Shown here one piece after another: positions 2,309 through 29,605 of a stretch of DNA of 36,504 nt (position 1 is the stretch's first letter; the number at the start of each line of letters is the position of its first letter). Where the stretch lies: assembly GCA_016462095.1 (NCBI GenBank), contig JAEMTW010000001.1, positions 6,536-43,039 of the forward strand, written 5' to 3'. Made by a program: the position numbers and the translations under genes. Below the pieces are notes generated by a model that was given only the letters and a program-made list of their open reading frames with translations, was not told where the DNA came from and searched no databases. The DNA comes from Thermoleophilia bacterium. GTDB lineage: Bacteria > Actinomycetota > Thermoleophilia > Gaiellales > F1-60-MAGs149.

Positions 2309-4398
2309 GAAGTGGCCGCTTCCTCCTGCAGCCGCTCGAGGTGTTTGACGCGCGCAATGTCGTGGCCGAGGTCGTGCAGCCACCCGACCAGAACGCGGTG
2401 GAGGTGCTCGGCGCTGACGACCGGCTCCTCGGGCCACGGAAACTCGGAGGGGAAGAGGACGAACGGGTGCATCTGCTCGCCACCGAGGCCGCCATGCGAG
2501 CCGACGAGCTCCTCGAAGGCGCCGATCTCGCAGGTCTGCTCGTCGAACGAGGCATTGATCATGAGGTCCGCGACATGGGCAAAGCCACTGGTGCGCAGCA
2601 CATGGCGGGCGGCATTCGGGCCGAAGGGCAGCAGCGGGTCGATGCCTTCGATTCGTCCGGTCTCGAGGTGATGCACGCCGTGCGCACCGATTGCGAGGGG
2701 ACCATCCTGCTCGGAGAGCACGAGGATGAAGCCGATGCCTTTGTGCTTGACGAGCCGGGGGATCAGGTGTGGGAAGGTCGCGTTGATCTGCTCCAGCGTG
2801 CGCCGTCCAGGCTCGGCGTCGAGATAGATCAAGCCGAGGCTGCCGGAGGCGAGCACCTTGATCAGCTCGCGGACGCTCTCGGCGCCTTCGCTACTCGCCA
2901 ACTCGTGGCCAGGCCCCAACACGATCGCGTCACCGCTCTCGTGTCCTTGCGTGATGCGCTCCAGCACAGAGCCCTTGCGGATGACGAGCTCCGAGACTGC
3001 TGCGCTCAATTGGCCCCAGGCCTCGTCCGAGCCGAACGGGTTCTCCATCACGGCGGCCTCACAGGCGCCATGGACGAGGCCTTCGAGCGTGATGTCGTAC
3101 TTCGAGAGGAAGGTCGCGCCCTGGCTCTGGCCATGGTCGGAGAGGACGACGACGTGATACGGGCGGTCTGCTGTCTCGGCCGCATGCGTGATCCGACCGA
3201 ACGCCTGGTCAATCCCGCGCAGCACGTCTAACGCGTCGTAGCGCTCGATACCAGAGTGGTGGGCAACCTCGTCGTAGCCGACGAAGGTGGAATAGACGAC
3301 CGGCCGGCCAGCGTAGGCATCGGCAATCACGGTCTGTACGGCGATGTCGCGGAGGATCACGACGGTTACGGCCCGCAGCAGCGAATAGCGGAGGCCGCGG
3401 TGCACGCGTGGAACGACGTCGCGACGGATCTGCTGGGCCGCTGCATAGAGCTCGCGACCAATGTCGAGCATGCTCAGGATAAAGGTACGAAAGACGGTGT
3501 ACGGGTTGGCGAAGTACGCGTAGTAGTCCTTGCCGCGCGTCGGCCGTGCGTGGAGTGCGGAGATCGTAAAGCTCGTGTGCTCGGCATCGCCCGTGACGAG
3601 GTTGCCGCGACTGGCGCCACCGCCTGCCAACAGACCACGACCATCGGAATGCCGCCGCTCGATCTCTGCTGCACCGCCCGGGTGGTTCGAGACGACGAAC
3701 GTACCGGTCTCCTTCTCGAACCAGCGGAAGGCCGGGATGTCCTCGTTCGAACCGTGCAGGATGCCCGACTGGCTCGCGCTCGTCTGCGACGACCAGTCGC
3801 ACTCCCAGCCCTCGAGTCGATGGCTTCCCGAGCGGAGCCAGCGCGCGAGTTCGGGCACATTGCCGTCGCGGATCGCGCGGCGCATGACGGGCTCGGCGAG
3901 GCCGTCAATCTCGAGGAACAAGATGCCGGGAACCGCTTCGCTCAACGACGCATCCGCGTGCTTGCGCGCCTGGCGCCGGATCACATTGCGGTAGTAGAAG
4001 TCGTCGTCATCGATTCCAAACAGGCTGGTCACGATCGTGTTGGTGAGGGTCAACAGGAAGGCCACGATCATGGCCGTCCAGAAGCTGGTGACATCAATGC
4101 CCTCGATCAGGTTGACGATGGCCCAGACCAGGGCAGCGTTGATGGCGAAGCCAGCGAGGCCGAGGGTCAACACTGCGACGGGCAAGGCGAAGCGAATCAG
4201 CAGGGGCCAGAGCAGGGCGTTCGCAACCGAGATCGCGATTGCAGCAACGATCGCCCGGAGCGGGTCTTCGATGTCGAGGCCAGGCAAGATCGCGGACGCG
4301 AAGTAGAGCGTGCCGGTCGAGATCGCGACGCTAATCAGCGCGCGGATGTAGGTATGAAGGTGGAGCAGCGGTGTGTCGCGTCGGCGCGTGCTGCTCAT
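2305..4398 (-). CDS. Membrane protein: N-terminal 4-TM holin-like domain (YvlD / phage holin family 4 type) fused to an alkaline-phosphatase-superfamily (type I phosphodiesterase/nucleotide pyrophosphatase) domain
   Basis: The N-terminus has four hydrophobic helices in the YvlD pattern (ILPGLDIED...LLWPLLIRFALPVAVLTLGLAGFAINAALVWAIVNLIEGIDVTSFW). AlkP-type metal and nucleophile motifs follow (LFLEIDGL, SSQTSASQSGILHG, VVVLSDHGQS). The ATG at 4398 overlaps the upstream stop as ATGA. Confidence 0.8.
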   Translation of the reverse strand: MSSTRRRDTPLLHLHTYIRALISVAISTGTLYFASAILPGLDIEDPLRAIVAAIAISVANALLWPLLIRFALPVAVLTLGLAGFAINAALVWAIVNLIEGIDVTSFWTAMIVAFLLTLTNTIVTSLFGIDDDDFYYRNVIRRQARKHADASLSEAVPGILFLEIDGLAEPVMRRAIRDGNVPELARWLRSGSHRLEGWECDWSSQTSASQSGILHGSNEDIPAFRWFEKETGTFVVSNHPGGAAEIERRHSDGRGLLAGGGASRGNLVTGDAEHTSFTISALHARPTRGKDYYAYFANPYTVFRTFILSMLDIGRELYAAAQQIRRDVVPRVHRGLRYSLLRAVTVVILRDIAVQTVIADAYAGRPVVYSTFVGYDEVAHHSGIERYDALDVLRGIDQAFGRITHAAETADRPYHVVVLSDHGQSQGATFLSKYDITLEGLVHGACEAAVMENPFGSDEAWGQLSAAVSELVIRKGSVLERITQGHESGDAIVLGPGHELASSEGAESVRELIKVLASGSLGLIYLDAEPGRRTLEQINATFPHLIPRLVKHKGIGFILVLSEQDGPLAIGAHGVHHLETGRIEGIDPLLPFGPNAARHVLRTSGFAHVADLMINASFDEQTCEIGAFEELVGSHGGLGGEQMHPFVLFPSEFPWPEEPVVSAEHLHRVLVGWLHDLGHDIARVKHLERLQEEAATS

Positions 4399-5819
4399 GA
4401 CACGAGACGCTTCTTCTGCACCTTGCCGAGCGCGTTGCGTGGCAATTCATCGATGCGTGTGATGACACGTGGGCGCTTGTGCGGGGCGAGCTGGCTGGCG
4501 ACGTGATCCACGAGGACATCGTCTGTCAAATCGCTGCCTGGTGCAACAACGACCCACGCGGCAATGCGTTCGCCGAGGTCGTCGTCAGGAATGCCGAGGA
4601 CGGCCGCCTCGACCACATCGGGGTGTTCGAGCAGGGCCGCCTCGATTTCTCCGGCACCGACGCGATAGCCACCCGTCTTGATCAGGTCGGTCGTACTGCG
4701 ACCCGCGAGGCGAAGCACGCCGTCGTGGTCCAACGAGCCGACGTCGCCGGTACGGAACCAGCCGTCGCGGAAGGCCTCTGCAGTTGCCGTCGGATTGCCG
4801 AGGTACGCGTCAAACAACGCTGCACTACGCAATTCGACGTTGCCAATCACGTCCGTGTCGCCGACGGGGAGTGTTTCCCCGGCGTCATCGGTGATCCGCA
4901 ATTCGACACCCGGCAGCGCGGTGCCGACGGCACCCGGAATGCGCGGGCCATCGTGGCGCGCGCTGGCGATCATCAGGGCCTCGCTCATGCCGTAACGCTC
5001 GACGATCTGTTGTCCCGTTGCCAGGGTATAGGCCTCGTGAACGCGCGCGGGTAGCGCGGCAGAGCCCGAGACGATCAGACGCGCGCCGCGCAACGCATCG
5101 GCAATCTTCGAGTCGGCCTCGGCGGCTGCGAGCAGGCGGCCATGCATGGTCGGCACGGCGAACAGCATCGTTGCGTCGTCGGCAAGCGCGGCCGCGATCG
5201 CCTCGGGCGTAAAGCGACCGACGTGGCGCACGCCGCCACCTAAACGCAATGGTCCGAGCAGACCGAGCACGAGTCCGTGGACGTGGAACAGCGGCAGCGC
5301 CTGCGTGACGATGTCTGCCTCCGTCCAGGCCCACGCCTCGGCGAGAGCCGCCAGGTTGGCAGCGATCGCTCGACGCGACAGCACAACGCCTTTGGGAAGG
5401 CCGGTTGTGCCGGAGGTGTAGACGATCAGCGCTGGTAGATCCGCGTCGGGCTCGTCGGTCTGGAGTGGCGCGCGAGCCGTTGGGTCGACCACGATTCGCG
5501 GCAGCCAGTCGAGCGCGGCAGGCAGCTCGGCTGTTGCCGACGCCAGCACGGCCTCTGGTGCGCTGTCACCCGTCTCGTGGGCGACCTCGGTCTCGCCCGA
5601 GGCAGGGTTGAGTGGCACGACCGTTACACCGGCTACGAGTGCACCAGCGATACCGAGCCCGGTTGCGAGCTCGGACGTGCACCAGAGTGCAACGCGGGTC
5701 TTCCCATCAAGCGACGCGGCCACGGCACCGACCGCGCCGGCCAGGGCATCGCCCTCGAGACGTTCGCCCGCAATCTCGAGCGAGGCACGCGACAGTCCGG
5801 GGAGCAGCGGTGGCGTCAC
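4395..5819 (-). CDS. AMP-dependent synthetase/ligase (acyl-CoA synthetase family)
   Basis: Adenylate-forming enzyme motifs are present: IVYTSGTTGLPKGVVLS, GWFRTGDVG, and a C-terminal PRNALGKVQKKRL. GTG start at 5819, 11 nt after the alkA stop. Confidence 0.9.
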   Translation of the reverse strand: MTPPLLPGLSRASLEIAGERLEGDALAGAVGAVAASLDGKTRVALWCTSELATGLGIAGALVAGVTVVPLNPASGETEVAHETGDSAPEAVLASATAELPAALDWLPRIVVDPTARAPLQTDEPDADLPALIVYTSGTTGLPKGVVLSRRAIAANLAALAEAWAWTEADIVTQALPLFHVHGLVLGLLGPLRLGGGVRHVGRFTPEAIAAALADDATMLFAVPTMHGRLLAAAEADSKIADALRGARLIVSGSAALPARVHEAYTLATGQQIVERYGMSEALMIASARHDGPRIPGAVGTALPGVELRITDDAGETLPVGDTDVIGNVELRSAALFDAYLGNPTATAEAFRDGWFRTGDVGSLDHDGVLRLAGRSTTDLIKTGGYRVGAGEIEAALLEHPDVVEAAVLGIPDDDLGERIAAWVVVAPGSDLTDDVLVDHVASQLAPHKRPRVITRIDELPRNALGKVQKKRLVS

Positions 5820-5830
5820 AGCGCGAAAGT

Positions 5831-6676
5831 CTAGGGCGACCAGAGATGCATCGTGGCAACGCCACGATACGGAGCCCAGGCCTCGCCGCGCAGGCGCGAC
5901 TCGCGCTCGGTGGGGCGTCGCCCATCGGCGTCCGCGAGTGCGATCAGCACGCCGAGATCGGAGGCTGGAAAGGCATCGAGGTCGCGGATCGCGCGCATGC
6001 GGACGTACATCGCAGTCCAGGGACCAATGCCCTTGAGCGCCACGAGCGCCGCCTGCGCCGCCTCCGGGTCGGCACCCGGGGAGAGATCGACACCACCGGT
6101 GGCGACGAGTTCGGCAATCGCGCGCAGCGCATCGCGTCGCGCGTTTGGCAGACCAAGGCCATCAAGGTCACCCTCGGCGACGGTCGCCGCGTCGGGAAAG
6201 ACGAGCCCACCATCGGGCAGGTGCTCACCGTGCCGCTCGGCGAGGCGGGCCGTCAAGGTGCGGGCGGCCGCGACGCTGACGAGCTGGCCGAGCACAGCGC
6301 GAGCACACATCTCCCAGGCGTCCCACGAGCCAGGCATGCGTAGACCAGGCCGGCTTGTGACGCGCGGGCCGAGCACCGGATCCTTACCGAGCAGTTCGAG
6401 CCACGGGCGCGGGTCGTCGTCGAGCCCAAGTAGGTGGCGCACCCGCGGTGTGGCCCGTTTGAGCGCCGTGGCGTTCCACGCGCTGATCTCCACGCCTGTC
6501 TTCCCATTCGCCGTCAGCGAAATCCGCCCGACAGACCGGCCAAGCCGGGCCGTGCGGGTGTAGGTCGTGCCATCCCACGTATCGATGTCGCGCACGGTGC
6601 GATCGCCGAGCCACGCCAGCGTGCCCGCAACGTCGATCGGGCCACGACCACGCTCGACCGTGCTTACGCGAGCCAT
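5831..6676 (-). CDS. alkA: DNA-3-methyladenine glycosylase II (AlkA-type, HhH-GPD superfamily)
   Basis: Helix-hairpin-helix GPD block (LVALKGIGPWTAMYVRMRAIRDLDAFPASDLGV) preceded by an AlkA-N-like domain. I place the start at the ATG at 6676 (MARVSTVERG...). The ORF-track start at 6988 runs about 310 nt into the upstream kinase gene. Confidence 0.8.
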   Translation of the reverse strand: MARVSTVERGRGPIDVAGTLAWLGDRTVRDIDTWDGTTYTRTARLGRSVGRISLTANGKTGVEISAWNATALKRATPRVRHLLGLDDDPRPWLELLGKDPVLGPRVTSRPGLRMPGSWDAWEMCARAVLGQLVSVAAARTLTARLAERHGEHLPDGGLVFPDAATVAEGDLDGLGLPNARRDALRAIAELVATGGVDLSPGADPEAAQAALVALKGIGPWTAMYVRMRAIRDLDAFPASDLGVLIALADADGRRPTERESRLRGEAWAPYRGVATMHLWSP

Positions 6677-15201: not shown

Positions 15202-15215
15202 CTCTGGCAGCGCAT

Positions 15216-15286
15216 GGGCCGACAGGGAATCGAACCCTGACCGAGAGATTAAAAGTCTCCTGCTCGACCTTCGAGCTACCGGCCCG
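15216..15286 (-). tRNA. tRNA-Lys (anticodon UUU); CCA not encoded
   Basis: The reverse complement folds as a cloverleaf. Acceptor GGGCCGG/TCGGCCC (one G-U pair). D arm GCTC-GAAGGTC-GAGC. Anticodon arm GGAGA-CTTTTAA-TCTCT. 4-nt variable loop CGGT. T arm CAGGG-TTCGATT-CCCTG. Discriminator A. The ends are good to about 2 nt. Confidence 0.85.
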
Positions 15287-22751: not shown

Positions 22752-24749
22752 ATGCATTCCTCCTACGCCCTCAACTCCGAGGATTTCGCTGTCGTTCGTG
22801 ATGGCGCGTCCGCTCCACTTGCGAGCCTCTGGCCCGGTGGTTACAAGAACGGTGATCGCTTCTGCGTGCTGATGGGAACTCCGATGGATGCGGTTGGGTG
22901 CTCGAATCTGATTGGTGGCACGAACACGCTGTTTTACGATCATCTGCGCGAGACGCGCGGCACGTCGAACTTCTTCCGCTACGCCGACACGTACATGATT
23001 GGTGTCGATTGCGAGCCCGGCGATTGGAACCAGCTCGACGTCTGGCCGATGCACAAGTTCGTCAGCATCATGTCGCCGACGGCCGAGTCGCTGATCCACA
23101 CGATCAACGATCGTCGGATTACGCATCTGGCGATTCCCGAGACGGGCATTCGCGTGCGTGGACCGGTCGTGTTGTCGACGTGGAACTCGTTCCTCGACAC
23201 CGTCAAGTGCATCGTGCTCTACAACCCGTTGACGGGCAAGGCGCGCGAAGCCGACGTCGGACTGCTTGGCAATAAGGTGATCGAGTCGTACGTCGAGCAG
23301 GCGATCTTCTCGACGCCGGGTATCGGCGCCGGTGCGCAGGCGCGCTATCGCCGCATTCGCCGCAATCTCGATCAAGAGCCGATGCGTTGCCTCGAGGAGT
23401 ACCGCACGCTGGCGAATCCCGCCGCGGCGCGCGCACTGCTTGGCGTCTCCGAGGTCTTGCCACCCGGCCACCAGCCGCCCGACCTGCGGCAGGCACCGAT
23501 CGTGATCATTCCCGTCGACAGCCCGATTGCCGCAGCCGACCAGGAGAGTTCGCCGCCGATTAATGCCGCTGGCATCACCGTCGTCGAGCCTCCCGCGCCA
23601 TTGCCGTCGACCGAGGGTCTTCGCAAGACGGCATTCGACGGCATCTTGCGTCGCTCTGGCGGCAACTTTGCGGAGTGGGAGGGCTGGTCGTGGATCTCCG
23701 ACTTCGGCGATCCCCTCAACGAGCATCACGCTGTTCGCGAGACCGTTGGTATCTGGGACGAGTCGCCGCTGCAGAAGTGGATCTTCCGTGGCCCCGACGC
23801 ACTCAAGGCTGTCGACTACTGCTTTGCCAATGACATGGCTTCGATGCAGGTTGGTCAGGCGCGCTACTCCTGCTTCCTCGACGAGCACGGCCGGATGCTT
23901 GGTGACGGTGTCGCCTTCAATACGGGTGATCCGGAAAAGGCGGGCATTCTCGTCGTGACGGCACTGCCGAGCGATGTCGACCAGTTCCGCCGCGTCTTGA
24001 AGCAGCAGGGCTTTGACGTTGAGGTGCTCGATCGCACGGAGGAATGGCCGCACATTCAGGTGCAGGGTCCCAAGGCGCGCGATCTGGTCGATTCGATGAC
24101 CGACTTCGATGTCGCCAGCCTCAAGTACTTCCGCTTTACCGCGGAGCCAATCACGATCGCCGGTATTGATGGCTGCTACCTGGCCCGCACCGGTTACTCG
24201 GGCGAGCTCGGCTACGAGATCTACGTGCCGAAGGGTGCCGCCGAGGCGCTCTGGCAGGCACTGCTCGACCATGGCGCCTCGCTGGGTATTCGCCCGTACG
24301 GCCTCGCCGCTGTCGAGTCGTTGCGCATCGAGTCGGGCCTGATCTTCCTCGGCTATGACTACTTCCCTGGCCTGACGTCGCCGTTCCATATGAATTTGGA
24401 GCGCACGATCAACTTGGAGACGGGCGACTTCGAGGGCAAGCAGGCGCTCGTCAACGAGTTGGCTGGTGGCATTACACATCGCCTCACGACCCTCGTGGTC
24501 GCGGGCAACGAGGCGCCGGATTATGGCGCTGATGTGTTCGTCAATGGTCGTGGTGTGGGCAAACTGCTGTCGCCGTCGGATGGTCGCTCGCCAAGCATTG
24601 ATCGTCTGATCGGCATCGCATGCCTCGAGGCCGACTTGGCCGAGCCGGGCAACCGCGTCGAGGTGGCGTTGCCGGATGGTCGTCTCGTGCCGGCCTACAC
24701 CGATACGTTCCCAATTTATGACCCCGAAAAGAAGAGGCCGCGATCATGA
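22752..24749 (+). CDS. Fusion protein: unrecognised N-terminal domain of about 270 aa, a Pro-rich linker, then an aminomethyltransferase (GcvT/DmdA-family, folate-binding) domain
   Basis: The ATG at 22752 has AGGA 8 nt upstream. The C-terminal 373 aa are GcvT-like (IWDESPLQKWIFRGPDALKAVDYCFANDM, ARTGYSGELGYEIYVP, PYGLAAVESLRIESG). The N-terminal part has normal globular composition (W, Y, C, H, N, K) but no motif I can name. The linker is PPGHQPPDLRQAPIVIIPVDSPIAAADQESSPPINAAGITVVEPPAPLPS. Confidence 0.85.
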   Translation: MHSSYALNSEDFAVVRDGASAPLASLWPGGYKNGDRFCVLMGTPMDAVGCSNLIGGTNTLFYDHLRETRGTSNFFRYADTYMIGVDCEPGDWNQLDVWPMHKFVSIMSPTAESLIHTINDRRITHLAIPETGIRVRGPVVLSTWNSFLDTVKCIVLYNPLTGKAREADVGLLGNKVIESYVEQAIFSTPGIGAGAQARYRRIRRNLDQEPMRCLEEYRTLANPAAARALLGVSEVLPPGHQPPDLRQAPIVIIPVDSPIAAADQESSPPINAAGITVVEPPAPLPSTEGLRKTAFDGILRRSGGNFAEWEGWSWISDFGDPLNEHHAVRETVGIWDESPLQKWIFRGPDALKAVDYCFANDMASMQVGQARYSCFLDEHGRMLGDGVAFNTGDPEKAGILVVTALPSDVDQFRRVLKQQGFDVEVLDRTEEWPHIQVQGPKARDLVDSMTDFDVASLKYFRFTAEPITIAGIDGCYLARTGYSGELGYEIYVPKGAAEALWQALLDHGASLGIRPYGLAAVESLRIESGLIFLGYDYFPGLTSPFHMNLERTINLETGDFEGKQALVNELAGGITHRLTTLVVAGNEAPDYGADVFVNGRGVGKLLSPSDGRSPSIDRLIGIACLEADLAEPGNRVEVALPDGRLVPAYTDTFPIYDPEKKRPRS

Positions 24750-25912
24750 CCGAACAGACAGACGCAGCAGGCTCTGAGGGCCTTCGCTTGACGGCATTTG
24801 ACGCGATTCAGCGTCGCCAGGGTGGCAATTTTGCGGAGTGGGAAGGCTGGGACTGGATCTCGGACTTCGGTGATCCGCTCGCTGAGCATCACGCTGTTCG
24901 TACTGCGGTTGCCATCTGGGACGAGTCGCCGCTTCAGAAGTGGATTTTTCGCGGCAACGATGCCACCAAGGCTGTCGATTACTGCTTTGCTAATGATATG
25001 TCCGCGTTGGCCGTTGGCCAGGCGCGTTATTCGTGCTTCCTTGACGAGAACGGTCGCATGCTTGGTGATGGCGTTGTCTTTAATACGGGCGATGACGCCG
25101 GTGCCGGCATCCTCGTCGTAACCGCGCTACCGACCGATGTCGACCATTTTCGCCGCGTCTCCGAGCAGCAGGGTTTTGACGTTGAGGTGCTCGACCGGAC
25201 GGAGAAGTGGCCGCACGTGCAGGTGCAGGGGCCGAAATCGCGCGATCTCGTCAATGCGCTGACCGACTTCGATGTCGACTCACTGAAGTACTTCCGCTTC
25301 ACGACGGAGTCGATCACGATCGCTGGCATCGAGGGTTGCTACCTGGCGCGCGCCGGCTATTCGGGCGAGCTCGGCTATGAGATCTATGTCCCGAAGGCCA
25401 GTGCCGAGGCGCTGTGGGAGGCACTGCTGGCAGCGGGCGCGGCGCATGGCATCCTCCCGTACGGTCTTGCTGCTGTCGAGTCGCTGCGCATCGAGTCGGG
25501 TCTGATCTTCATTGGTTACGACTACTTCCCGGGTGAGACCTCGCCGTTCCACATGAATCTGGATCGGACGATCAGTCTGGATACGGGCGACTTCCTCGGT
25601 AAACAGGCACTTGTGGACGAGTTGGCGGCGGGCGTCACCCATCGCCTCACGACGCTGGTCGTCGCGGGCGAGGAGGCGCCGGACTACGGTGCTGAGGTCT
25701 TCGTTGACGGGCGTAATGTTGGCACGCTGCTGTCGCCGTCCGCGGGGAGTTCGCCGAGTGTCGATCTCGTGATTGGCATGGCATGCATCGAGGCAGACCT
25801 CGTCGCATCCGGTACTCGTGTTCAGGTTGCACTCCCTGACTCAAGCCTCGCCGAAGCCACGACCGATGCGTACCCGATCTACGACTCGGAGAAAAAGCGA
25901 CCACGGTCGTGA
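23613..25912 (+). repeat. Tandem direct duplication of a roughly 1.14-kb GcvT-family coding unit (23613-24749 and 24776-25912; period 1163 bp)
   Basis: The two copies align without gaps at a constant offset of 1163 nt from GAGGG..CTTCGC to the stop codons. The proteins align without gaps over 373 aa, with 42 of the first 50 aligned residues identical. Both end in ...KKRPRS*. Confidence 0.9.
24746..25912 (+). CDS. Aminomethyltransferase-family (GcvT/DmdA-like, folate-dependent) protein, stand-alone paralog
   Basis: Same motifs as the C-terminal part of the upstream gene. The ATG at 24746 overlaps the upstream TGA as ATGA, with GAAGAGG 8 nt upstream. Confidence 0.9.
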   Translation: MTEQTDAAGSEGLRLTAFDAIQRRQGGNFAEWEGWDWISDFGDPLAEHHAVRTAVAIWDESPLQKWIFRGNDATKAVDYCFANDMSALAVGQARYSCFLDENGRMLGDGVVFNTGDDAGAGILVVTALPTDVDHFRRVSEQQGFDVEVLDRTEKWPHVQVQGPKSRDLVNALTDFDVDSLKYFRFTTESITIAGIEGCYLARAGYSGELGYEIYVPKASAEALWEALLAAGAAHGILPYGLAAVESLRIESGLIFIGYDYFPGETSPFHMNLDRTISLDTGDFLGKQALVDELAAGVTHRLTTLVVAGEEAPDYGAEVFVDGRNVGTLLSPSAGSSPSVDLVIGMACIEADLVASGTRVQVALPDSSLAEATTDAYPIYDSEKKRPRS

Positions 25913-26673
25913 CCTTGGTCAGGGCCTGGAGCGTCGACTCGGCTGGACCAATCGGAGTCGTCGCAGAGGGCTGGGAGGGGGTGCGTGGAGCAGAGCTCTT
26001 GCGCGCCCAGTTGCCGAAGGAGGATCTGGTCGTGGTCGCCGACCACGCCTTTGCGCCGTACGCGAAACGGCGGCCCGATCAGATCGTGCAGCGGGTGCAG
26101 GACCTCGCCGTGGGTCTCCTTGACGAGGGCGCTAAGGCGTTGCTTCTCGCGAGCGGCTTTGCCTCGTTCGAGGCGCGCCCCGAAACTGAGGGCATCACTC
26201 TACGTGGCCTCGAGTGTGGCCTGCGCGCGGCACTTGCCGAGGCCCAGGGGCGTCCCGTCGTAGCGGTCTTCTCATCGGCCGAGGTCAAGCCGATGGTGCT
26301 CGCCAAGACGATTCGTACGCTGCGCGGTGGAGGCAGCGTGACGCTGATCGAGCGTGGCGAAGATACCGTCACCGAACTGCTTGCTCGCCTGCGCGGCCAT
26401 GCGCCTGAGGTCGCAGTGCTCCTGCTCTTGACGCCGAGCGCCTACGCCGACACCGAAGCGGTGCGCGCAGAGGCCGGCACCCTCGTCGTGATCGACGCTC
26501 TCGAGGCGGCCACCGACTTTTTGATCCACGACATTCGACGGCACCAACTGCTTGCCCACCACGGCGAGCGTTCGGGTCGCATTACGGCCTACGCCACGCG
26601 GGGTGGCACGACGGGCAGCTCGCGTGAGCCACTCTCAACGGCGTCGGTGGCAGCACTCCAGCGGCGCAGATAG
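25909..26673 (+). CDS. Glutamate-racemase (MurI / Asp-Glu racemase)-like protein with substituted catalytic motifs
   Basis: Collinear by eye with MurI: IGVVAEGWEG (MurI: IGVFDSGVGG), VVVADHAFAPYA (GDxxxxPYG), KALLLASGFAS (ACN[ST]AS, catalytic Cys), VLLLLTPSAY (GCTHYP, second Cys). The GTG at 25909 overlaps the GcvT stop as GTGA. G/C-rich third positions support coding. Confidence 0.6.
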   Translation: MTLVRAWSVDSAGPIGVVAEGWEGVRGAELLRAQLPKEDLVVVADHAFAPYAKRRPDQIVQRVQDLAVGLLDEGAKALLLASGFASFEARPETEGITLRGLECGLRAALAEAQGRPVVAVFSSAEVKPMVLAKTIRTLRGGGSVTLIERGEDTVTELLARLRGHAPEVAVLLLLTPSAYADTEAVRAEAGTLVVIDALEAATDFLIHDIRRHQLLAHHGERSGRITAYATRGGTTGSSREPLSTASVAALQRRR

Positions 26674-26717
26674 TTAGTTTTGAGACTTATTTTCTCACTA
26701 TAATGTAGTATTTGGGT
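26674..26717 (+). promoter_or_regulatory. Strongly A/T-rich intergenic promoter region with an exact TATAAT (26699-26704)
   Basis: The sequence tagttagttttgagacttattttctcacTATAATgtagtatttgggt ATG stands out from the GC-rich flanks. TATAAT ends 13 nt before the ATG at 26718, so the leader would be very short. -35 candidates: TTGAGA (26680-85) has only a 13-nt spacer, and TTAGTT/TAGTTT give 18-19 nt. The imperfect inverted repeat ACTAtaatgTAGT overlaps the -10. Confidence 0.5.
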
Positions 26718-27431
26718 ATGAATACCGCTGCCCGCGACACTGCACTCCACGCGCTGGTCTCCGTGGAGCGCCTGCTTCGGCGCGCCGATCCCGCTGCGGT
26801 GCCCGATCTGCTCCAGGTGCGTGCCGCCTTCGAGTCGACGGCAGGTCGCACGGTCACCCGCGGTCGTGCCGCGCGTTTACTTGCACTCACGCAGACGAGT
26901 GTCGATCGGTGGATTGTCGATGGAGCGATTCCAACCGTGATCGACGTCGATGGGCGCACGATGGTGCCGACGCGCGAACTCATACGGTTACGCGTGGAGA
27001 TGGATGAGGAGCGCCGCCGCGGCATCCAGCGACCGCTCGGTATCGTCGTGCGGCGGCGGCGAGCGGTGGCCTCCGCACTACCGATCGCGGAACTTCTGCC
27101 CGTGGCGTCGGAGTCGGATCGAGGACATCGGCAAGCCGAGATTGCCGACTTGGCGGTGCATCGTCTGATTGGGCGTGGGCTGACTCCGCTCCAGATTGCG
27201 ATCGCGCGCTGGCAACTTGAGCAGGCTCATGAGAGTGGTCGTCTTCACCCATCGTGGTATGCGGCATGGCAATCGGTGTTCGATGCCGGCGCCGATCGGG
27301 TCCGCGAGGTTCTGACAGAGGATTCACCTGCTGCGGCGTCGCTCCGGCAGACGTCGCCCTTCAAGGGGCAATTGGGGCATGAAGACCGGCGGCGATTGTT
27401 CGCGGTACTCCACGAGGATGTGACTGCGTGA
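26718..27431 (+). CDS. HTH (excisionase/MerR-like HTH_17-type) DNA-binding protein with an unrecognised C-terminal domain of about 140 aa; putative antitoxin/regulator
   Basis: VTRGRAARLLALTQTSVDRWIVDGAIPTVIDVDGRTMVPTRELIRL fits the excisionase-type HTH pattern (..LLGVS..TV.RWI..G.LP.....GR..I....L..). The gene has many A/T-ending and rare codons (tta, ata, gga, cca). Its stop overlaps the next start (GTGA). Confidence 0.65.
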   Translation: MNTAARDTALHALVSVERLLRRADPAAVPDLLQVRAAFESTAGRTVTRGRAARLLALTQTSVDRWIVDGAIPTVIDVDGRTMVPTRELIRLRVEMDEERRRGIQRPLGIVVRRRRAVASALPIAELLPVASESDRGHRQAEIADLAVHRLIGRGLTPLQIAIARWQLEQAHESGRLHPSWYAAWQSVFDAGADRVREVLTEDSPAAASLRQTSPFKGQLGHEDRRRLFAVLHEDVTA

Positions 27432-27961
27432 AACGCGCCGAATTTGAGCATGTCATTCGTGCTGCTGTTGCCATTGTTCACGACGAGTTGATCGTCGTCG
27501 GGAGTCAGGCAATTCTTGCGAGATACCCAGATGCGCCAAGCGATCTTTTGGTATCGGACGAGCTTGATATGTATCCACGAACGCACCCCGAACGGGCGAT
27601 CGACCTTGATGCGCTGATCGGTGCGGGATCACAGTTCGAGGAGACGTTCGGCTACCGAGCGCATGGCGTCGCACCAGAGACGAGCACGCTTCCTGAGGGA
27701 TGGGAGCAGCGATTGGTACGGGTTGAAGTGGAAAGTATCGATGGTGGTATGGCCGTGGCATGGGCTCTTGAACCACACGATCTTGTCCTCGCAAAACTTG
27801 CGGCGGGACGCCAGCAGGACTACGACTTCGCGGTTGGAGCCCTACGTGCGAATCTCGTCGAACGTTTGGAACTGGTGCGTCGTTGCGAGGGGCTCGGGAT
27901 TGCCATTCGCAATGACGTGCGTCGCCGTGTTGAGGGGGTGACGGTGCGCGCTGGCAGCTAG
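27428..27961 (+). CDS. Minimal nucleotidyltransferase-fold protein (DUF6036-like / MNT-AbiEii-like); putative toxin or effector
   Basis: Pol-beta NTase-type signature: LIVVGSQAIL (hG[GS]) followed by VSDELDMY ([DE]hDh). Small size (177 aa). Third positions are clearly less G/C-biased than in the neighbours. It is translationally coupled to the HTH gene. Confidence 0.6.
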   Translation: MKRAEFEHVIRAAVAIVHDELIVVGSQAILARYPDAPSDLLVSDELDMYPRTHPERAIDLDALIGAGSQFEETFGYRAHGVAPETSTLPEGWEQRLVRVEVESIDGGMAVAWALEPHDLVLAKLAAGRQQDYDFAVGALRANLVERLELVRRCEGLGIAIRNDVRRRVEGVTVRAGS

Positions 27962-28782
27962 GACGCGAGTCCTAGCCCGGTCACCGCAATCAGCGTCACC
28001 GCAATACCGATGTACTGGTTGACAAATAGCCGCTCGCGCATGCCGAAAATCCCAATCAACGCAGCGGCCGTGCCCCACTGGGTGGCGGTGACCGACGCGA
28101 CCGACAGCGGACCAATCGAGGCGGCGAAGGCGAAGCAAACGAAGCCAACGGCGTCGAGCAGTCCACACCAGATAATCGGGTACACGTTGACGCGGCTCGG
28201 TAGCTGACGGACGAGGAGAAAAGCCGGCAAGATCACGAGCACGCTCGTTGCTCGTGTGATGCCAACCGTAGTCAGGTCGGGCAGCTCGGATTGGCCGAGC
28301 GCGATCAGGACGCCGGCATAGGCAACGGCCGCCAGGATCGCTTCGGGGGCACCGGCCGCAGTGCGGCGTCCCGGCTCCAACGCGACAAGCACAGCACCGA
28401 TTACCGCCACGACAATCAACGCGTACATCAGCATGGATGGGCGCTCGCCGAGCGCGATCGAGAAGATCGTTGCGACGCCGCCTTCCAACGCGATGATGGG
28501 GGCGATCACGCTCAGGCTGCCCTTGCGCAAGGCACGCAGGAGCAGAAAGAACCCAACATCAGCGAGCACACCGGCGGCGACAGGCCAGGCGAGGGCCTCG
28601 ATGGTCCAGGGGCCCTCAAGGTGGTCGACGATCAGGGCGAGCGGTAACACCGCAGCCGTCGTCACGATCAGCACCCAGAACATGATCACCGCCGGCTTGG
28701 TCTTGGTGCGGGTGACCTGCTGGGTGAAGACGTTTGCAAACGCCCAGGCGAACGCAGTTACAAGTCCGAAGAGTACGGTCAC
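27958..28782 (-). CDS. EamA/DMT-superfamily transporter (paralog 1)
   Basis: About ten hydrophobic helices in two EamA-like halves (e.g. LSVIAPIIALEGGVATIFSIALGERPS; VASVTATQWGTAAALIGIFGMRERL). It starts 1 nt after the stop of paralog 2. Confidence 0.85.
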   Translation of the reverse strand: MTVLFGLVTAFAWAFANVFTQQVTRTKTKPAVIMFWVLIVTTAAVLPLALIVDHLEGPWTIEALAWPVAAGVLADVGFFLLLRALRKGSLSVIAPIIALEGGVATIFSIALGERPSMLMYALIVVAVIGAVLVALEPGRRTAAGAPEAILAAVAYAGVLIALGQSELPDLTTVGITRATSVLVILPAFLLVRQLPSRVNVYPIIWCGLLDAVGFVCFAFAASIGPLSVASVTATQWGTAAALIGIFGMRERLFVNQYIGIAVTLIAVTGLGLAS

Positions 28783-28783
28783 G

Positions 28784-29605
28784 CTAGATCAGCAATCCAA
28801 GGCCCGTGACCGCGAGCATCGTGACGGCGATCCCAACGTATTGGTTGATGTGCAATCGCTCGCGTAGAAAGAAGATGCCGATCAGTGCTGCTGCCGAGGC
28901 CCATTGGGCCGACGTGACGGAGGCCACAGTCAACGGCCCAAGCGAGGCGGCGATGGCGAAGGCTGCGAAGCCAACCGCGTCGAGCGTGCCAGCGGCGAGG
29001 AGCGGTTTGATGGCCGGGCGTGGCGGCAGTTGACGCACCATCAGAAACAAGGGAATCGCAGTCAGGAGGCTCGCGACGCGCGCAATCCCAGCCGAGGTCA
29101 TTGCCGGTTGCTCCGTGTGCCCCATGGCCACGAGCATGACTGCGTAGACGAATGCTGCAAGCACGGCCCAACCGGCACCCTTCGCCGTCCGTCGCCCTGG
29201 TTCGATTGAGACGAGCACGGCACCAACGGCGGCAAGCGCGAGTAGCGCGATCGTCGCGGGCGAGGGGCGCTCACCAAGCACGACCGCGACGGCTGCCGCG
29301 AGTCCACCCTCGATTGCGATGATCGGCGCCACGACGCTGATGCTGCCGACCTTCATCGCCTTCACCATCAGCAAAAAGCCGATGTTGCCTGCGATGCCGG
29401 CCAGCGCGGGGGGACCGAGCGCTTGAAGGTTGAACGGACCCTGTAAGCCATCGACGATCAACGCAACCGGGACGACCACGCACGTGCTGATCAACACGAT
29501 CACGACGAGCATCAAGCGGAGATCCACGAGTCGGGACGACTTTTGGACGAAGACGCTCGCGAACGCCCACGTGAACGCTGCCGACAGTCCGAGTAGGACT
29601 GTCAC
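28784..29605 (-). CDS. EamA/DMT-superfamily transporter (paralog 2)
   Basis: Collinear with paralog 1 (MTVLLGLSAAFTWAFASVF vs MTVLFGLVTAFAWAFANVF; ISVVAPIIAIEGGLAAAVAVVLGERPS). Roughly half the residues are identical by eye. It starts 9 nt after the MttB-family stop. Confidence 0.85.
   Translation of the reverse strand: MTVLLGLSAAFTWAFASVFVQKSSRLVDLRLMLVVIVLISTCVVVPVALIVDGLQGPFNLQALGPPALAGIAGNIGFLLMVKAMKVGSISVVAPIIAIEGGLAAAVAVVLGERPSPATIALLALAAVGAVLVSIEPGRRTAKGAGWAVLAAFVYAVMLVAMGHTEQPAMTSAGIARVASLLTAIPLFLMVRQLPPRPAIKPLLAAGTLDAVGFAAFAIAASLGPLTVASVTSAQWASAAALIGIFFLRERLHINQYVGIAVTMLAVTGLGLLI

Follow-up and report, generated by a model that had tools for sequence, protein, structure and literature searches.

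A DUF6036 nucleotidyltransferase and its DNA-binding partner form a predicted toxin–antitoxin-like cassette in a Thermoleophilia genome

A stretch of 36,504 nucleotides from a Thermoleophilia bacterium (GenBank assembly GCA_016462095.1, contig JAEMTW010000001.1, positions 6,536 to 43,039; hereafter the window) carries two short overlapping genes, which we call A and B, between a GcvT cluster and genes for EamA transporters. We propose, with a probability of roughly 60%, that these genes form a toxin–antitoxin (TA)-like cassette in which B, a nucleotidyltransferase (NTase) of the DUF6036 family, would act as the toxin and A as an autoregulating antitoxin, the newly recognised C-terminal domain of A being the predicted cognate partner of B. 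A sequence-only reading of the same DNA had suggested a TA or defence module, and the TA-type part of that suggestion remains the best fit in outline. The pair has a fixed A–B architecture, its members co-occur strictly, its DNA-binding domains are swapped among homologues, it is carried on plasmids, and the catalytic residues of B are invariant. In addition, the cassette is polymorphic for presence and absence among related genomes, and the C-terminal domain of A is inherited together with B.

The nucleotidyltransferase gene and its partner

B matches the Pfam family PF19502, "Nucleotidyltransferase of unknown function (DUF6036)", with 38.5 bits (cut-off 23.6, E 1.3e-9), as do all 33 of its aligned relatives. 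An AlphaFold2 (AF2) model computed from this 33-sequence alignment reached a predicted local distance difference test (pLDDT) score of 96, and its best fold matches in the PDB by Foldseek were ANT(2'')-Ia, MenT1 (8an5_A), TglT/MenT3, terminal uridylyltransferases, and Pol lambda; almost all top-ranked folds belong to the Pol-beta NTase type. No relatives were found in a profile search of PDB sequences with B, nor did B match NCBIfam, PADLOC, or PHROG. Residue conservation was scored over 108 homologues, including plasmid copies at 33%–47% identity. S26, Q27, S43, D47, D118, K123, and R128 are kept in every one, G25 in 107 and D131 in 105, and position 45 is always E or D. The strings GSQA and S-D-E-L-D, previously picked out as NTase motifs, are thus confirmed as invariant elements apart from the E/D alternation at position 45. 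An hG[GS] motif, a [DE]x[DE] pair, a third acidic residue, and an alpha/beta NTase fold, the defining features of the Pol-beta superfamily, are all found in B. Judged by its sequence and its model, B is a Pol-beta-fold NTase of the DUF6036 family, and the earlier assignment of an NTase fold is upheld.

The AF2 model of A (pLDDT 94) consists of an N-terminal helical hairpin, a winged helix-turn-helix (HTH), and a six-helix C-terminal domain (hereafter the C-domain). The HTH resembles mycobacteriophage Xis, BldC, RacA, GlnR, and MerR-family proteins (Foldseek probability 0.95–1.0, target template-modelling (TM) score 0.53–0.77, E>0.2), and it was the only part matched when full-length A was used in the fold search. 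Against Pfam HTH_17 (PF12728), A scores 13.6 bits (E=0.085), below the cut-off of 27, and PF12728 or PF00376 is precomputed for distant members of the A family. The C-domain has no match in Pfam, NCBIfam, PADLOC, or PDB sequences. Its conserved positions in A are H137, H148-R149, W184, L209-R210-Q211-x-S213-P214-F215-x-G217, and R224; H148, R210, and R224 are invariant, and H137 and the Ser of the SPF loop nearly so. The string RWQLEQAH had been offered as a faint hint of a HEPN-like motif, but this R-x6-H string is not conserved in the A family and no HEPN model is matched, and we reject a HEPN reading of A.

By the domain coordinates over the loci, universal conservation is confined to the last ~100 residues of A. 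The C-domain is joined to the HTH module in Thermoleophilia and other Actinomycetota, whereas it mostly stands alone, as a protein of 100–115 amino acids (aa), in Proteobacteria, Myxococcota, Acidobacteriota, Planctomycetota, and Verrucomicrobiota; some C-domain proteins carry other N-termini, such as one with a weak match to a MazE-like ribbon-helix-helix. A search with the C-domain alignment returned 439 proteins, most of them 100–115 aa long with no Pfam domain and some fused to HTH_17 or to an XRE-type HTH. Interchangeable DNA-binding heads are typical of antitoxins.

The linkage of the two genes was examined by a scan with the B alignment of a GTDB set in which each species is represented by one genome; this gave at least 575 relatives, of which 80 loci were kept. 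Four metagenome loci bring the number to 84, and all 84 have an open reading frame (ORF) matching the A profile immediately upstream of B and in the same orientation; they are distributed over Actinomycetota, Planctomycetota, Acidobacteriota, Proteobacteria, Myxococcota, and Verrucomicrobiota. The reciprocal look-up placed a DUF6036 gene directly downstream of the C-domain gene in three of three contigs: a Mycobacterium intracellulare chromosome with its copy near an integrase, a contig with a tandem duplicate of the pair beside PIN and Uma2 genes, and a contig with the pair near Fic and AbiEii genes. Homologues of B are found on 57 plasmids, 29 of which are conjugative and 34 of which come from Rhodococcus, and all three plasmids inspected carry a C-domain gene directly upstream of B. 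In the Comamonas and M. lentiflavum plasmids the C-domain is fused to an XRE HTH, and in Alicycliphilus pALIDE01 it stands alone and adjoins an AbiEii gene and an integrase. Some copies of the pair adjoin Phd/PIN, Phd/RelE, AbiEii, Fic, or integrase genes. When the partner profile was searched exhaustively, 2,529 representative clusters matched at E<=1e-10; this number is an upper estimate, inflated because the profile also took in an XRE HTH segment. The generic marks of a TA module are that its two genes are small, coupled, and read in one direction, that they strictly co-occur, and that they are carried on mobile elements and variably present; the pair shows each of these.

Searches of Pfam, NCBIfam, and PADLOC agree with the statement that no described TA or defence model fits either protein. 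The module is not confined to this genome; the family is large and widespread, and its NTase already bears the Pfam name DUF6036.

Several individual loci deserve separate mention. In a JGI 3300043267 contig (L111), two C-domain and DUF6036 pairs lie at 2485-3335 and 5001-5851, within 3 kb, and adjoin a PIN pair and genes for a Uma2 endonuclease, AAA_14/DUF4143, and an SNF2 helicase. In a member of the Solirubrobacterales (L085, 6803-9313), a Phd/PIN pair follows immediately downstream of the A/B pair. The commonest neighbour families are MIP (6) and CRCB (5), and in Solirubrobacterales the pair often has an arsenic-type ArsR–MIP–LMWPc cluster on one side and genes for CrcB fluoride channels on the other. 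Finally, a contig of 2983 bp from a metagenome-assembled genome (MAG) of Phycisphaeraceae (L018, 1016-2250) carries B with a full-length A of actinobacterial type, including an HTH_17-type head (210 bits); its binning as Planctomycetota reflects either a mis-binned contig or transfer between phyla.

Alleles, empty sites, and the regulatory region

We compared metagenome and MAG contigs from related freshwater Actinomycetota that have in common the gene order GcvT, a 254-aa gene, the cassette where present, EamA, and MttB. The allele of the window recurs in L091 (A and B both 97% identical to the window) and L001 (A 93%, B 90%). Divergent alleles occupy the site in L094 (A 68%, B 60%), whose flank proteins are 94%–96% identical to those of the window, in L088, L007, and L090 (A 64%, B 59%–61%; flank proteins 79%–90%), and in L005 and L098 (A 68%–69%, B 71%–73%; flank proteins 70%–86%). 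The site is empty in L093 and L095, with flank proteins 92%–97% identical to the window, and in L097 and L099, with flank proteins at 67%–85%. In L092, A is intact and B is deleted down to an in-frame 19-codon remnant, MKREPVLKRIAGCAVRAGS*; since A is kept there with B reduced to a remnant, loss of B alone is tolerated. In the empty sites the 254-aa gene and EamA share the CTAG of their stops, and for this reason the boundaries proposed earlier for the element lie no more than a few bases from those of the natural indel, which on the left may extend into the last codon of the upstream gene. That codon ends in A in nine of nine filled alleles and in C in four of four empty sites. The empty sites could represent either losses or an ancestral polymorphism.

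The two halves of A have different histories. When A is split at residue 115, residues 1–115 are 91%–93%, 81%–83%, and 71%–72% identical to those of three host clades, mirroring the flanks, whereas the C-domain (residues 116–237) shows 42%–43%, 46%–47%, and 63%–64% against those clades in turn, discordant with the flanks. B groups as the C-domain does, into type 1 (window, L001, L098, and L005; 71%–89% mutual identity) and type 2 (L094, L088, and L007; 72%–85%), and between the types the C-domains are 42%–47% and the B proteins 58%–62% identical. As judged from these alignments, the C-domain is exchanged jointly with B, in two divergent allele types. Such co-variation would be expected if A and B interact as cognate partners and the C-domain determines their specificity. 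The recombination breakpoint falls between the DNA-binding and the predicted toxin-binding halves of A, so that cognate specificity is directly testable with chimeras. Close relatives moreover offer a natural experiment, as they carry filled, empty, B-deleted, and allele-swapped states.

By the same comparison, the promoter and the HTH module are long resident at the site. A recent horizontal insertion is rejected, as the divergence of the promoter and of the HTH half of A keeps step with that of the flanks, down to relatives with flank proteins only ~70% identical, and simple vertical inheritance is rejected on account of the empty sites plus the discordant C-domain and B alleles. What survives of the proposal of a horizontally inserted module is an accessory cassette with deviant codons that is absent from the site in some relatives; the insertion is not recent, for the HTH half and the promoter track the flanks.

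The regulatory region was examined by aligning nine alleles across the spacer upstream of A; the coding regions of these alleles are only 60%–70% identical. The spacer is as AT-rich as had been reported, with 27% GC over 44 bp in a window of 64.7% GC. It holds an inverted repeat of ATAGT and ACTAT, the left arm of which is replaced by C-TAG-C in the empty-site relatives, and a TAnnnT hexamer that lies exactly 6 nt before the ATG in nine of nine alleles (Table 1). This arrangement suggests that the hexamer, TAGTAT in the window, serves as the -10 element for a transcript that is leaderless or nearly so, with a transcription start predicted at or near 26718. We infer from the conserved columns that the inverted repeat is the operator of A, which A would bind. 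The exact TATAAT that had been read as a promoter is present and occurs nowhere else in the window, but it is not significant by itself, since one copy or more turned up in 43 of 100 shuffled versions of the window. It is also not conserved in the nine alleles, and a consensus scan found no -35/-10 pair; we reject it in that role. An alternative TTG start for A lies at 26712.

Table 1. Positions of the cassette features in the window (position 1 is the first nucleotide of the window)
Feature	Position	Strand	Remarks
Left arm of inverted repeat, ATAGT	26670-26674	+	Overlaps the TAG stop of the 254-aa gene; invariant in nine alleles
Predicted promoter/operator spacer, AT-rich	26674-26717	+	Conserved among alleles
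Conserved block TTTTCTCACTAT	26690-26701	+	TTT-CT-ACTAT; columns T35-T37, C39, T40, and A42-T46 invariant
Right arm of inverted repeat, ACTAT	26697-26701	+	Reverse complement of ATAGT; candidate operator for the HTH of A
TATAAT	26699-26704	+	Only the first three bases, TAT, conserved in other alleles
TAGTAT, TAnnnT -10-like hexamer	26706-26711	+	T51, A52, and T56 invariant; spacing to A63-T64-G65 fixed
Gene A	26718-27431	+	237 aa from ATG; predicted antitoxin/autoregulator; 42 homologues
MerR/excisionase-type winged HTH of A	26847-27017	+	aa ~44-100; Foldseek, weak Pfam
C-terminal all-helical domain of A	27102-27428	+	aa 129-237; motifs H..SLxxHR, W, LRQxSPFxG..R
GTGA overlap	27428-27431	+	B start GTG overlaps A stop TGA; translational coupling
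Gene B	27428-27961	+	177 aa; DUF6036 NTase; predicted toxin
NTase catalytic motif region of B	27500-27568	+	G25-S26 (27500-27505), S43-x-E45-x-D47 (27554-27568)
Further conserved B residues	27779-27820	+	D118, K123, R128, D131; 108-homologue comparison
CTAG	27958-27961		Common to the stop of B (TAG) and the stop of convergent EamA

The overlap of the two genes and the CTAG common to the stops of B and EamA were both found where they had been described, and the 4-bp overlap of A and B recurs at the same position in L001, L088, and the plasmid loci. Codon usage sets the pair apart from its surroundings: among the 26 window genes of at least 150 aa, A and B have the two lowest values of GC content at third codon positions (GC3), 0.68 and 0.57, against 0.71–0.83 for the remaining genes. 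GC3 declines through the cassette, from 0.72 in codons 1–115 of A to 0.65 in codons 116–237 and 0.56 in B. The claim that the pair is compositionally unlike its neighbours is correct at third codon positions but not for A as a whole, the overall GC of which (0.65) is host-like; the deviation is confined to third positions, and most of it falls within B and the C-terminal half of A.

The cassette is flanked by two GcvT paralogues, the 254-aa gene, two EamA paralogues, and MttB. The 254-aa gene (25909-26673), which adjoins GcvT in every relative whether the cassette is present or not, has no match in Pfam or PHROG; its earlier description as racemase-like is unsupported because of the missing Pfam match. 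The tandem GcvT genes at 22752-25912 encode a 665-aa protein, with a ~290-aa N-terminal extension that matches no Pfam family, and a 388-aa paralogue that is ~78%–80% identical to the GcvT part of the larger one. The second GcvT copy is found only in the window and L091; L088, L007, L092, L095, and L097 have a single copy. The two tandem EamA transporter paralogues (27958-29605) are ~55% identical to one another, and EamA copy number varies among relatives, with a single gene in L088, L007, and L094. A scan of the window with Rfam and ARAGORN gave one match, a tRNA-Lys(UUU) at 15215-15285 on the minus strand, which lies 11 kb away and has no association with the cassette; no known RNA family was found within the cassette.

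Proposed mechanism and alternative explanations

Under the TA-like reading, B would be an active NTase and the growth-inhibiting component. By analogy with MenT and AbiEii, it probably adds nucleotides to the 3' end of an RNA, for instance at a tRNA acceptor stem. The C-terminal helical domain of A, of about 100 aa, would neutralise B, possibly by binding it. Neutralisation may also proceed through an enzyme-linked step in which A induces auto-phosphorylation of the invariant Ser43 of B. This serine stands two residues before the first catalytic acid, as do the residues concerned in MenT1 (T39-x-D41) and MenT3 (S78-x-D80), whose antitoxins induce auto-phosphorylation of that active-site Thr/Ser (PMC11375011). 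The N-terminal MerR/excisionase-type HTH of A would bind the ATAGT/ACTAT inverted repeat and repress the operon, which is probably transcribed from the TAnnnT box 6 nt before the ATG.

It is conceivable, although we would sooner bet against it, that the C-domain and DUF6036 together represent a large, unrecognised TA or conflict family with a new mechanism of neutralisation, in which the invariant LRQxSPFxG loop of a folded antitoxin domain serves as a pseudo-substrate, is covalently modified by the NTase, or triggers auto-phosphorylation of Ser43. The specificity of each pair would then reside in the recombining unit of C-domain and toxin, and the allele types in freshwater populations would be ancient.

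Several observations weigh against the TA-like reading. None of the 33 aligned B members matches the AbiEii toxin model PF08843 at E<=1, and hhalign against one AbiEii-family protein gave a probability of 1.5%. The fold matches of B are weak (E >=0.035, TM ~0.4), and the first of them, ANT(2'')-Ia, is an antibiotic-modifying enzyme and not a toxin. The immediate neighbours of the pair are mostly housekeeping or transport genes. In long-read MAGs, A appears split or truncated beside an intact B at two loci (L010, 5242-5993; L052, 5234-5785) and possibly at a third (L024, 5354-6004), which could be homopolymer assembly error or a real loss of A; the latter would speak against a toxic B. The B-deleted allele is known from a single metagenomic contig, that of L092. 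DUF6036 and PF19502 are mentioned nowhere in the collection of papers searched, and a term search of the Makarova 2009 TA census found no MNT–Xre pairing.

Some of these points favour the strongest alternative, that the pair is not toxic at all. B would in this case be an NTase that modifies a small molecule or RNA, for example to inactivate an antibiotic or metabolite, the C-domain a specificity or regulatory subunit, and the HTH a transcriptional control. The similar size of ANT(2'')-Ia, which has the same fold, and the MerR class of the HTH of A, a class common in drug-responsive regulators, fit such a function, as do the transporters and metabolic genes nearby. However, the match to ANT(2'')-Ia is weak (E 0.035, TM 0.41, 14% identity). 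ANT enzymes are not known to have an obligatory partner gene, whereas B always follows an A-type gene in the loci examined. Many partners of B are C-domains of 100 aa without a DNA-binding part, which therefore cannot be regulators, and elsewhere three or four unrelated DNA-binding heads have been swapped onto this one domain. Moreover, the gene overlap, the plasmids, the tandem duplicates by PIN and AbiEii genes, the polymorphism, and the fast-diverging alleles fit a selfish or conflict module better. We therefore regard a non-toxic pair as unlikely, while ranking it ahead of the other alternatives.

Somewhat less probable still is a role in anti-phage defence, in which the pair would sense infection and B would shut the cell down by abortive infection; this is compatible with the TA-like reading and does not exclude it. 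The closest analogue, AbiE, protects against phages (PMC11375011), some copies of the pair lie near AbiEii, Fic, Uma2, PIN, and SNF2 genes, and divergent alleles with presence/absence polymorphism resemble defence loci. Nevertheless, the pair has no match in PADLOC (PADLOC-DB 2.0), and no phage-borne copy or counterpart was found in INPHARED or IMG/VR, with no significant match in BFVD and only weak, sub-threshold PHROG matches to the HTH of A. Defence genes are not enriched among 130 ORFs beside the pair in other genomes, which matched 91 Pfam families at E<=1e-5 (PIN 2, AAA_21 2; the gene calls are crude longest-ORF picks). The defence part of the sequence-only reading thus finds no support in these searches.

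The least probable of the alternatives is a reversed polarity, as in the type VII system MntA/HepT, in which B would be an antitoxin NTase that nucleotidylates A and the C-domain would be the toxin, for instance an RNase, with the Ser of LRQxSPF as a possible modification site. Small NTases do act as antitoxins in HepT/MntA (PMC7641770, PMC11586414), where, as here, a small NTase and a small all-helical protein make up a mobile two-gene module and the NTase performs the neutralisation chemistry; the invariant or near-invariant His, Arg, and SPF-loop Ser residues of the C-domain would suit a toxin. There are also differences: the helical partner lacks an invariant Rx4-6H motif, neither protein matches a HEPN or NTP_transf_2 model, B matches only DUF6036 and not the NTP_transf_2/COG1669/COG1708 type, and the DNA-binding heads sit on A, as on an antitoxin, and not on the NTase. 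The natural allele in L092 has the partner without the NTase, a state that should be harmful if A were toxic. The MNT gene usually comes first in HepT/MntA, whereas the NTase gene is downstream, in second place, here.

Comparison with known systems

Like classical type II antitoxins, A consists of an exchangeable DNA-binding head and a conserved domain specific for the partner, and a palindromic element lies at its promoter. The partner domain differs in being a folded six-helix structure with an invariant LRQxSPFxG loop that matches no described antitoxin family. If the TA-like reading is true, it would be a new antitoxin domain, modelled in no database.

In AbiE and MenAT systems, antitoxin genes of various kinds precede the toxin gene, the COG5340 antitoxins repress their own promoter, and the acceptor ends of tRNAs are the sites to which the toxins attach nucleotides (PMC7450476). 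The order of the genes had been taken to distinguish the pair from described systems; it does not, because a regulator in first and an NTase in second place are also found in AbiE and MenAT (PMC7450476). These systems share with A and B a two-gene operon, often with overlapping genes, and an antitoxin that can be a DNA-binding autoregulator, as is predicted for A. The toxins have a Pol-beta fold with the pattern GS…[ST]x[DE]…K…D, to which S43-x-E45-x-D47, K123, and D131 of B correspond by pattern analogy only; the best fold matches of B include MenT1 and MenT3, and antitoxins of unrelated families serve one toxin fold.

The two kinds of system also differ. B belongs to PF19502 and the DUF1814 toxins to PF08843, and membership of B in the AbiEii/MenT family is rejected by the negative Pfam and hhalign results given above. 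B has 177 aa against about 190–300 in those toxins. In A, the place of AbiEi/COG5340, COG4861, or the MazE-like MenA1 is taken by an HTH of the MerR/Xis type and a new C-domain, and neither A nor the short C-domain proteins match AbiEi in Pfam, NCBIfam, or PADLOC.

If B is toxic, DUF6036 would be a second family of NTase toxins, unrelated in sequence to DUF1814. The family occurs widely among Actinomycetota of soil and fresh water and on plasmids of Rhodococcus, Mycobacterium, and Cupriavidus, and the locus is relevant to the persistence of TA cassettes in free-living bacteria with streamlined genomes. MenAT and AbiE (DUF1814) are the closest functional analogues of the A/B pair, which is itself not a member of those families.

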